Of a DNA stretch of 9,059 nt, positions 7,871-9,059 are shown piece by piece (the stretch's first letter is position 1; every line of letters begins with the position of its first letter). This stretch comes from a virus. Lineage: Monodnaviria > Loebvirae > Hofneiviricota > Faserviricetes > Tubulavirales > Inoviridae. The stretch is from the IMG/VR virus record IMGVR_UViG_2563366954_000001. One strand, written 5' to 3'. The notes under the pieces are model-generated. The model searched no databases. It saw only the letters and a list, made by a program, of their open reading frames with translations, and was not told where the DNA came from. The position numbers and the translations under genes were made by a program.

Positions 7871-8974
7871 ATGAGAAAAAAGATGCCGGACTTGATTACT
7901 GATACATTGAAAGTAGTTACTTCTTTTTTTGTGGCATTAGTCCTCAATAAGTTTTTATCTATATTTAGGAAAAGACAACTTTACTTATCCTGTTGGAACT
8001 CCTTGAGTAAAACCTCAATATCTGACAATGCAATAGTAATAAATGCATCAGTATTTAATAAAGGTAAGGATAAAGAAAAAAATGTAGAAATAAAAGTCCC
8101 AAACGGTATGTCTTGTACTGTAATTGCAAGTGATCATGATGCAACTACCGAAGGTTCTTTTGTGAAGATAGATAGAATATTAGCAAATAAAAAAATATCC
8201 ATGGTGCTCTTGATTGAAGGAACAAGAGTTCTTGATAAAAGTACCATGCCTTCCATAAGATCAGAAGATACTGACGGGAAAACATACCTTTCAAAAGACT
8301 CAGTGCCACCGAGTGCAGGTTCTTTTATTTTAGGCGGTGCTATTTTTGCTGCATTTTTCAGTTATATGGTCATCAGTATCCAAACAGAAGACAACCCTCT
8401 CGCGGGCCCATTGAAAGCATATAACTACATGATTTATAACAATATGTACAATTCTGGACTTTCGATTAATCCTATAGGTAATGGACTGATAACTGAAAAT
8501 TACAATCTAAGAGCGAATGAATACCCTATTGAAATAATAGATGCCAAGATAGAAAAAAATCAAATAATGTTCAAATTTAGAATAATTAATAAAACATCAG
8601 AAGCACTGAAAGTTTCAGGCGGATGGAGAATATATAAAAACTTTCAATATATTTCCGAACATGTTGATACATTTGATTATAAAGATGAAAAGAAAAGAGA
8701 AGAAGAAGAAATAAGGGTGTATAAGAAATACAATGTGGAATTTGTTAATGATAATGGATATCTTATGGAAAAACCGAAAGAAAGGGTTGAAGTTCCTGCA
8801 AATTCAGTTGGCTATATTATAATAAACAGAAAATACTCTCCAAGCATTACTTATAATGACCTAAACATCGAGTTTAACTTTAGTGGTGGTTCAGGTGAAA
8901 TATACCAAGAAGCAGATATGCTTTTTACAGCTAAGAATTCTAATATAAGCAGTACTATATTAGACAAGAAATAA
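7871..8974 (+). CDS. Hypothetical AT-rich protein with two predicted TM segments (367 aa); function unknown (candidate phage accessory/moron gene)
   Basis: Long uninterrupted ORF in a markedly AT-rich segment. N-terminal hydrophobic segment (VVTSFFVALVLNKFLSIF) and a second TM (GSFILGGAIFAAFFSYMVISI). Lys/Asn/Ile-rich soluble regions. No motif I can assign to a known family. Confidence 0.6.
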   Translation: MRKKMPDLITDTLKVVTSFFVALVLNKFLSIFRKRQLYLSCWNSLSKTSISDNAIVINASVFNKGKDKEKNVEIKVPNGMSCTVIASDHDATTEGSFVKIDRILANKKISMVLLIEGTRVLDKSTMPSIRSEDTDGKTYLSKDSVPPSAGSFILGGAIFAAFFSYMVISIQTEDNPLAGPLKAYNYMIYNNMYNSGLSINPIGNGLITENYNLRANEYPIEIIDAKIEKNQIMFKFRIINKTSEALKVSGGWRIYKNFQYISEHVDTFDYKDEKKREEEEIRVYKKYNVEFVNDNGYLMEKPKERVEVPANSVGYIIINRKYSPSITYNDLNIEFNFSGGSGEIYQEADMLFTAKNSNISSTILDKK

Positions 8975-8980
8975 TTAATT

Positions 8981-9007
8981 GGTTCGCACAATGACGTTAT
9001 GCTAAAG
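8981..9007 (+). other. Degenerate dif-like site (site A): XerC-like arm, 5-nt central region, XerD-like arm
   Basis: GGTTCGCACAA-TGACG-TTATGCTAAAG versus E. coli dif GGTGCGCATAA-TGTATA-TTATGTTAAAT: 9/11 and 9/11 arm identities by hand alignment, with a non-canonical 5-nt spacer. Confidence 0.5.
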
Positions 9008-9043
9008 AGGCCGCTGCGGAGGCCATTTTCGCAGCGGCCTTTT
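9008..9043 (+). terminator. Perfect GC-rich hairpin (11-bp stem, 11-nt loop) followed by TTT; terminator for the cargo gene and/or apex of the folded attachment hairpin
   Basis: AGGCCGCTGCG (9008-9018) pairs exactly with CGCAGCGGCCT (9030-9040); TTT at 9041-9043. Confidence 0.6.
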
Positions 9044-9059
9044 CAACATAACGAGTCGC
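9041..9059 (-). other. Partial dif-like site (site B): XerD-like arm plus extended central region; completed by window positions 1-14 if the ends are joined
   Basis: Reverse complement of 9041-9059 followed by reverse complement of 1-14 gives GGTGCGCATAA-TGTGCGACTCG-TTATGTTGAAA: a perfect XerC arm, an 11-nt central region and a 9/11 XerD arm. It is inverted relative to site A. Confidence 0.45.

Follow-up and report, generated by a model that had tools for sequence, protein, structure and literature searches.

An interchangeable cargo gene beside the attachment site of a CUS-1/YpfPhi-type prophage of Escherichia coli and its possible role in phage exclusion

The filamentous phages YpfPhi and CUS-1 possess two open reading frames (ORFs) beyond their regulator gene that differ between the two phages (YPO2271/2272 in YpfPhi, orf1/orf1a in CUS-1) and have no known function (PMC4266046). 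The terminal ORFs of phages of this type have been called functionally unknown since 2002-2014, although the fitness of plague bacilli and of extraintestinal E. coli is influenced by these phages (PMC4266046). In filamentous and tailless prophages of Vibrio, a defined variable locus is enriched in defence systems (Steensen et al. 2024, PMC11630473), and the same paper cites such hotspots of defence genes for P2/P4-type elements (Rousset et al. 2022, as cited in PMC11630473). By these precedents, a variable defence-type prophage locus is a known kind of feature. The stretch of DNA analysed here, in the following referred to as the window, comprises the 9,059 nucleotides of the IMG/VR record IMGVR_UViG_2563366954_000001. 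It is a CUS-1/YpfPhi-type filamentous prophage (inovirus) of E. coli that is integrated at dif in a XerCD-dependent manner. Next to its attachment site, it carries a gene for a protein of 367 amino acids (aa) on the plus strand (7871-8974). This gene is interchangeable accessory cargo (a 'moron') in a single cargo slot, which lies between the stop codon of a gene for a protein with four transmembrane segments (4-TM protein) and the first dif-like site. Judged by its context only, there is about an even chance (probability roughly 0.5) that the 367-aa protein is a membrane-level anti-phage exclusion or defence protein.

The limits of the cassette were defined by comparing the window with three E. 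coli prophages that share its backbone but hold other cargo. The alignment of these three prophages ends at position 7771, two bases beyond the stop codon of the 4-TM gene (7347-7769, plus strand, 140 aa; phrog_4174, unknown function), which forms the left boundary of the slot, and restarts at 8972-8976, while nothing aligns in between. The replaceable cassette, consisting of a leader and the 367-aa gene, covers 7772-8973 on the plus strand (the right end is approximate) and has a G+C content of 31.2%. The flanks of the slot are 94-98% identical, and in the three copies with other cargo the helix-turn-helix (HTH) protein is 100% and the 4-TM protein 98.6-100% identical to those of the window. 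Four different cassettes were seen between these flanks, so that the slot shows the conserved surroundings and differing content of a cargo hotspot. The first alternative cassette encodes a protein with a DpnII/MboI-type restriction endonuclease domain together with a DUF6953 protein, the second the zinc-binding protein ECs_2282 and a 159-aa ORF, and the third two hypothetical ORFs of 155 and 123 aa. All three are G+C-poor, too (34.7-35.6%), and each of them ends with a stop codon that abuts the dif-like site. The low-G+C genes held in this slot vary from copy to copy of the same phage, and the 367-aa gene is horizontally exchanged. Of 5,426 complete E. coli genomes, 97 contain the backbone segment with the HTH and 4-TM genes, and 17 of these 97 possess the 367-aa gene, mostly in two tandem copies. 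An earlier note on this DNA, made from the letters alone, had placed the gene outside the inovirus core, between regulator and attachment site, and had suspected a variable cargo hotspot. Both suppositions agree with the gene order, with the three copies carrying other cargo and with the position of the gene, which is the last one on the regulator strand and whose stop codon (8972-8974) lies six bases before the first dif-like site of the attP site.

This distribution already bears on two other explanations. That the protein is a core virion or morphogenesis protein of the phage is hardly conceivable, since nothing beyond the location in a phage genome speaks in favor of it: of the 97 E. coli genomes that share this backbone, about 80 lack the gene; it is encoded on the regulator strand, while the structural genes are on the other one; and its family also occurs on plasmids and in non-phage loci. 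The earlier note had furthermore proposed that the 367-aa protein and the 4-TM protein encoded upstream might form a two-gene membrane system, which could be imagined as Kiwa-like or RexAB-like. The two genes are indeed adjacent, located on one strand and found downstream of a repressor-like gene. However, the 4-TM gene is conserved backbone regardless of the cargo, as its product is kept at 98.6-100% identity beside three unrelated cargos, and it is absent from all 19 of the 19 homologue loci outside the CUS backbone. The cassette boundary falls precisely between both genes, and neither protein matches any PADLOC model at E ≤ 1, so that neither the model matches nor the co-inheritance of two genes expected for Kiwa (membrane protein KwaA and KwaB with DUF4868) or a RexAB-like system were seen. 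The distribution therefore largely refutes a two-gene system, which we consider very improbable.

The stretch from 7871 to 8974 is a real gene and not a chance ORF, as indicated by an open frame of 1.1 kb in AT-rich DNA, by 21 database homologues (lowest identity 30%) and by purifying selection (dN = 0.16 with saturated synonymous sites against a homologue of 76% identity). The gene starts with ATG and matches phrog_17621 (unknown function) with E = 7.5e-212. The start is ambiguous by four codons, since RefSeq uses an in-frame ATG at 7883 (363 aa, WP_001534184.1) and most homologues begin at this position as well. A G+C content lower than that of the core genes had been estimated by eye in the earlier note and was confirmed: the cargo gene has 31.7% G+C, and 26.4% at third codon positions (GC3), in comparison to 42.7% G+C in the remainder of the window, and all other genes of the window have between 37 and 49% G+C (a sliding profile was also computed). 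The leader of the cassette has a length of 99 bp and contains no second ORF. At the left cassette edge, it contains a perfect 13-bp inverted repeat (AATATTACCCTAG / CTAGGGTAATATT) with a 5-nt loop at 7773-7803, which is specific to this cassette and not found in the other cargo variants. This repeat might terminate or attenuate transcription behind the 4-TM gene, or serve as an operator. A promoter candidate read by eye, TTGATC-17-TTAAGT at 7839-7867, fails the criteria of the promoter scan and was discarded.

The 367-aa protein has hydrophobic segments at residues 13-31 and 150-171. In the AlphaFold2 model (mean pLDDT 80.7), a first transmembrane (TM) helix at residues 6-31 is followed by a beta-sandwich (37-139), a second TM helix (150-172) and another beta-sandwich, into which a helical hairpin is inserted (178-365); when the C-terminal domain is modelled on its own, a pLDDT of 89.5 and a pTM of 0.84 are reached. 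On the plus strand of the window, TM helix 1 (residues 13-31) is encoded by 7907-7963; it contains the conserved polar residues N26 and S30 and is followed by the invariant juxtamembrane sequence FRKRQLY. Beta-sandwich domain 1 (residues 33-147, 7967-8311) is predicted to be cytoplasmic and contains the invariant motifs NKGKDKEK, IDR and KSEDxxGK. TM helix 2 (residues 150-171) corresponds to 8318-8383, and the variable C-terminal beta-sandwich with its hairpin insert (residues 173-367), which is predicted to be periplasmic, to 8387-8971. In 114 of 128 family members, the counts of lysine and arginine at the TM flanks favor this orientation, in which domain 1 is cytoplasmic and the C-terminal domain periplasmic. 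The mean pairwise identity amounts to 54% in domain 1 and to 24% in the C-terminal domain, with FRKRQLY and the motifs of domain 1 being nearly invariant. The distant member P0122 (464 aa) possesses a tandem duplication of the C-terminal beta-sandwich and another one, P0088 (531 aa), a C-terminal extension of about 200 aa, so that the outer domain is modular.

No match to Pfam or NCBIfam, and none to PADLOC-DB v2.0.0 at E ≤ 1, was obtained for the 367-aa protein. Among 61 diverse family members, PADLOC gave just two isolated single-member matches at E ≤ 0.01 (Csn2 and PDC-M67A) and Pfam stray single-member matches. The best hit of a profile search in the PDB had an E-value of 0.41, and a Foldseek search against BFVD yielded query-normalised TM-scores (template-modelling scores) of at most 0.23. 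In the AlphaFold2 model, both domains are plain, generic beta-sandwiches. No annotated Sie/Imm family was matched in Pfam, PHROGs or NCBIfam, the only match being phrog_17621 with its label 'unknown function'. The hydrophobicity analysis, the model and the family searches thus agree with the earlier note, in which two TM segments and a C-terminal part of some 190 aa without recognisable motif had been described.

A profile search among 1.84 billion representatives resulted in 208 clusters at E ≤ 1e-3 and 37 at E ≤ 1e-30, which indicates a small family; it is unnamed in every source searched. A scan of species-representative genomes revealed only five loci, with relatives in Kluyvera, Serratia and Pseudomonas, so the family is rare and accessory. 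Homologues are located in the same terminal slot, directly followed by an analogous attP, in a Providencia inovirus with a GPA-type Rep and in a Morganella inovirus with Rep_trans. In E. coli LD39-1 (locus L022, 1-10174), a different and degraded inovirus at the same dif/hipA locus carries a homologue of 39-41% identity in the equivalent slot, and in Pseudomonas peli a homologue is situated at the terminal slot or edge of a Pf-like, integrase-bearing prophage. Small loci at or near dif carry homologues without inovirus genes (locus L005 and Serratia, both with none detected, and Proteus with none called in 8 kb upstream), and IncF-type plasmids of Enterobacter possess homologues, too, one of which is located downstream of a Xer-type site. 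The family is also present in a soil-type metagenome and on plasmids of several genera. Two remote homologues of about 30-33% identity are found in other surroundings: one in a hotspot of a P2-like prophage, located after gpD and flanked by PDC-M38A/B and PDC-S52, and the other in a defence island between PDC-S06/NACHT and PDC-S31. The distant member P0064, used as query, gave three matches with uninformative context.

In three of the homologue loci, an ORF of 74-76 aa (MHNEIEKWLN..., 85-96% identity) lies immediately upstream of the homologue (L003 7705-7929, L022 8698-8928, L023 1921-2151). These loci are two Enterobacter plasmids and the LD39-1 inovirus, and the ORF has no family match. A conserved small-ORF partner was considered and rejected, since the ORF is confined to these three related loci and absent from the window. 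It might nevertheless encode an antitoxin or regulator where it is present, and this touches on the idea that the cargo is an addiction or toxin module, i.e. a membrane toxin whose loss or de-repression would kill the cell and thereby stabilise an unstable episomal or tandem prophage. Such a function would fit to the instability of episomal YpfPhi-type phages (PMC4266046) and to the frequent occurrence of toxin-antitoxin cargo in Vibrio filamentous prophages (PMC11630473). However, the cassette of the window offers no second ORF in its short leader, and a search with Rfam over the whole window revealed no RNA family. With 367 aa and two folded beta-sandwich domains the protein is also unlike small membrane toxins, and its variable C-terminal domain suggests an external, co-evolving ligand. 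We therefore regard an addiction module as quite unlikely.

The right boundary of the cassette is formed by the first dif-like XerC/XerD site of attP (GGTTCGCACAA-TGACG-TTATGCTAAAG) at 8981-9007 on the plus strand. It is followed on the same strand by a G+C-rich hairpin (GGCCGCTGCG ... CGCAGCGGCC, then TTTT) at 9009-9043, which constitutes the center of the attP inverted repeat (arms 8995-9018 / 9030-9053) and is likely the intrinsic terminator of the cargo gene. A XerD-arm-like half (TTATGTTGAAA) of a second, inverted dif-like site is present at 9041-9059 on the minus strand; in the circular or tandem form this site is completed by the XerC arm at positions 1-14 of the window. These first 14 positions (minus strand) cover the XerC arm and the first part of the central region in the exact E. 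coli dif at the prophage junction (dif at L001 5987-6014). The element is thus integrated at the chromosomal dif and has inverted XerC/XerD-like sites (8981-9059 plus 1-14), a structure that has been described for YpfPhi (PMC4266046).

The close coupling of the gene to such a site is not restricted to the window, since the unit recurs at dif and at plasmid Xer sites. The first dif-like site of the window attP is also found directly 3' of the homologue in L003, L005, L017 and L022; the attP-like element begins at or a few bases past the homologue stop codon in L003, L005 and L022 and about 35 bases past the matched part of the homologue in L017. Analogous attP sites are located directly 3' of the homologue in L004 and L008, and dif or Xer-like sites upstream of the homologue in L005, L018, L023 and L025. 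Moreover, several hundred matches to the attP-like element of 71 bp (window 8980-9050), which comprises the dif-like site plus the G+C hairpin, are found on E. coli plasmids, with about 93% identity. Since the edge of the cassette is a dif-like site and units of a gene and an attP hairpin recur on chromosomes and plasmids, Xer-assisted shuffling of the cassettes is suggested. To judge from the position of the boundaries, their spread is probably due to Xer recombination at the adjoining dif-like site, together with homologous recombination in the backbone.

This linkage is also the basis for an alternative function. The protein might be a competition factor specific to inoviruses or to integrative mobile elements exploiting Xer (IMEX), which blocks other filamentous phages or Xer-dependent elements, for instance by masking TolQRA or another envelope entry factor, and does not act on tailed phages in general. 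The presence of homologues in the same slot of five inovirus lineages, the fact that nearly all copies in Enterobacterales and Morganellaceae adjoin dif, an attP-like element or a plasmid Xer-like site, and the nature of the product as a membrane protein with a variable domain predicted to be periplasmic would all be compatible with this assumption. Furthermore, a resident YpfPhi partly protects against superinfection with that phage; the protection has, however, been likened to the repressor-based immunity of CTXphi in the same review (PMC4266046). It also speaks against a competition factor that the remote homologues in the P2-like hotspot and the defence island have no inovirus nearby, and that the nuclease-, SIR2- and AbiJ-like genes in the slot or adjoining attP-like remnants have no specific connection to filamentous phages. 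In total, such a specialised role appears rather unlikely to us.

The cargo found at such sites resembles defence genes. The nuclease encoded by one of the alternative occupants of the slot matches DpnII-MboI of Pfam (6.9e-59) and Aga_Helical-REase of PADLOC (1.3e-34). Downstream of the prophage in L001, the stop codon of a SIR2 gene abuts a second attP-like copy (18223-18297); its product is ThsA-like and matches PDC-S25 (2e-82), whereby PDC models denote defence candidates and not validated systems. The region just past this prophage (L001 15567-18297) contains, besides the SIR2 gene, a fragment of an ISNCY transposase and resembles what would be left of a further Xer-dependent element stacked at dif. 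On the far side of the LD39-1 inovirus (L022), a gene annotated as DUF2971 abuts an attP-like copy (775-843), and on the one plasmid examined (L026) a gene with AbiJ_NTD4 and DUF7014 domains ('STM4504/CBY_0614') and a match to PDC-S32 is located directly before an attP-like element (3501-3571). An ISNCY transposase pseudogene precedes the latter gene. Recognisable defence genes are hence found both among the occupants of the slot and among the genes abutting attP-like elements. The slot beyond the regulator in E. coli is a one- or two-gene cargo position that is bounded by a Xer site and has defence-like occupants.

Defence or exclusion, which the earlier note had listed among several membrane-acting functions, is the best-supported reading of the 367-aa protein because of this cargo, with the nuclease domain in the slot and the defence-candidate genes at attP-like remnants, and because of the remote homologues in the P2-like hotspot and the defence island. 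The product would be an inner-membrane protein with a very short periplasmic N-terminus, TM helix 1, the conserved cytoplasmic beta-sandwich, TM helix 2 and the fast-evolving periplasmic beta-sandwich. The cytoplasmic beta-sandwich would present an invariant charged surface (FRKRQLY, NKGKDKEK, IDR, KSED). Since the protein has no catalytic domain, it would probably act by binding. Expressed from the prophage on the repressor strand, it could shield the lysogen from superinfecting phages at the inner membrane. In this process, specificity would be determined by the variable periplasmic domain, which would recognise a component of the incoming phage or a host entry factor used by that phage. The conserved TM and cytoplasmic module might thereupon prevent the genome from entering (superinfection exclusion) or cause the membrane to fail (abortive infection); of these, we slightly prefer exclusion.

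Several points weigh against a role in exclusion or defence. In the Pfam, PADLOC, NCBIfam, PDB and BFVD searches, no known defence or exclusion protein resembled the 367-aa protein in sequence or specifically in fold. The arguments in favor amount to guilt by association across about 20 loci, of which many are related, and the Serratia, Proteus and metagenome-contig contexts are uninformative. There is a strong bias to Xer-dependent elements, and therefore the function could concern these elements and not phage defence. The topology is taken from the positive-inside rule only. Finally, no consensus sigma-70 promoter was found directly upstream of the cargo gene, with sites being no more frequent than in shuffled sequences and none of them placed to drive the gene, so its expression in lysogens is assumed.

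It is also conceivable that the protein serves the host without acting on phages at all, as a lysogenic-conversion or fitness factor in the envelope that alters the surface, the stress tolerance or the in-host fitness of extraintestinal E. coli. CUS-1 and YpfPhi confer modest fitness gains in vivo and have terminal ORFs of unknown function (PMC4266046), and the carriers among the complete genomes are mostly human isolates. However, the effect of CUS-1 came from an insertion in puvA, the gene of a receptor-binding virion protein, and not from the cargo gene discussed here (PMC4266046). The occurrence of the family in Pseudomonas, in a soil-type metagenome and on plasmids of several genera does not fit well to a function in extraintestinal E. 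coli either, and the other cargo of the slot and of the attP-like remnants is defence-like. Such a fitness factor therefore seems rather improbable.

Should the 367-aa protein indeed act against phages or exclude them, it would represent a structurally unusual family without catalytic domain and with folded domains on both sides of the membrane, and it would offer a small test object of 1.3 kb that is easy to clone. Xer sites would then be a route for the shuffling of defence genes among filamentous phages, chromosomes and plasmids. This would also be of relevance for phage therapy, since it is easy to miss small filamentous prophages as a source of resistance. Going further, one could tentatively assume a new single-protein, membrane-spanning immunity family, made up of a conserved cytoplasmic beta-sandwich that is coupled via two TM helices to a fast-evolving periplasmic sensor. 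This family would be part of a wider, undescribed pool of cassettes of a defence gene and an attP hairpin, which are exchanged among the Xer-dependent elements of enterobacteria (filamentous prophages, small dif-integrated elements and plasmid Xer sites) like integron cassettes or Acinetobacter pdif modules. We regard this extended assumption as less likely than not.

Apart from the cargo slot, the window shows the typical composition of an inovirus, with the core genes on the minus strand and a divergent HTH regulator, according to Pfam profile matches and gene order. The minus strand encodes a G2P-type replication protein (5580-6632; Phage_CRI 1.2e-73, G2P_X_C 3.6e-34), a putative single-stranded DNA-binding protein (RefSeq label 'DNA-binding protein'), small membrane or coat-like ORFs together with a 570-aa protein at the pIII position, a DUF2523-type pVI-like protein, Zot/pI (2130-2648; Zot family match) and a pIV secretin (Secretin 1.3e-24). 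The RstR-like HTH regulator (6804-7250, plus strand; HTH_3 E = 1.6e-9, phrog_3557) is the first in the row of genes on the regulator strand; it is also near Phage_CI_repr, the 21.0 bits being just below the Pfam cut-off of 22. At the dif-proximal end, two 82-aa ORFs (155-403 and 549-797, minus strand) occupy the position of YPO2280a/YPO2281 in YpfPhi; they are conserved among the E. coli copies and have no family match. The element is adjoined by hipBA, as in other E. coli copies.

Prophages with 99.5-100% identity to the window are present in complete E. coli genomes. A circular record of 9,565 bp, which is annotated as an untypable plasmid (NZ_CP128883.1, locus L002), is identical to the window and contains a complete phage genome; it is presumably the replicative form of the phage. 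The strain holds chromosomal phage copies, too, and the cargo gene looks frameshifted in the circular record, possibly owing to a sequencing error. No match was found in the INPHARED phage collection, neither by megablast of the whole window nor by tblastn of the 367-aa protein; the only representatives of the phage are prophages or 'plasmids' within bacterial records. In comparison to every full-length E. coli copy, the zot/pI gene of the window (2130-2648) has an in-frame deletion of 507 bp (junction at 2540; L001 8541-9046 is missing), by which the Walker-A N-terminus is fused to the C-terminal part and the product is reduced to 172 aa vs 341 aa. Because of this deletion, the prophage copy in the window is probably assembly-defective.

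With regard to known systems, the window resembles CUS-1 of E. coli O18:K1:H7 and YpfPhi of Yersinia pestis most closely, set beside them by the description in the review. It shares with them a G2P-type Rep, a single-stranded DNA-binding protein, coat genes, Zot, a secretin, a divergent HTH regulator, integration at dif and inverted XerC/XerD sites, as well as terminal ORFs that are attL-adjacent in the orientation of the review (PMC4266046). The absence of relatives outside Kluyvera, Serratia and Pseudomonas from the species-representative scan argues against a homologue in YpfPhi, provided that Y. pestis is among the representatives. The comparison with cargo of CTXphi-type phages, which the earlier note had drawn, is apt only loosely, since ctxAB is located at the opposite, attR-adjacent end of the phage (PMC4266046). 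Its analogy to lambda cI-rexAB holds for gene order and strand and for nothing beyond: an accessory membrane-protein gene is located downstream of a repressor-like gene on the same strand, but it is a single gene without partner and without PADLOC or Pfam match, and the likeness is positional.

A different comparison concerns the product itself. T4 Imm and Sp, P22 SieA and HK97 gp15 are membrane superinfection-exclusion proteins. The 367-aa protein resembles them as a phage-encoded, putative inner-membrane protein without catalytic domain that is encoded on the lysogenic side and proposed to act on incoming phages. In contrast to them, it is much larger, has two beta-sandwich domains predicted to be on opposite sides of the membrane, and exhibits no sequence or specific fold similarity to these proteins and no Pfam match. 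We found no description of the protein family, its architecture or the Xer-bounded layout of the cassette in E. coli inoviruses in the literature searched.

Concerning the cassette, the pdif modules of Acinetobacter plasmids, outlined in two reports as genes flanked by XerC/XerD sites (PMC5790767, PMC7399989), are comparable in the tight linkage of an accessory gene with a XerC/XerD-like site and in the recurrence of the unit of gene and site on chromosomes and plasmids. The differences are that the Xer site pair lies on one side of the cassette only, with backbone homology on the other, that the cargo is defence-like and does not confer antibiotic resistance, and that we infer Xer-mediated exchange here. 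The slot itself corresponds to the variable locus of Vibrio prophages in several respects, since in both cases a small dif-integrated prophage possesses, between conserved flanks, a slot with diverse low-G+C genes that is enriched in defence functions. In contrast to the Vibrio locus, however, the slot described here belongs to another host and phage lineage, its 367-aa cargo is part of no catalogued defence family, and in E. coli it accommodates one or two genes and ends, at its right edge, in a Xer site.

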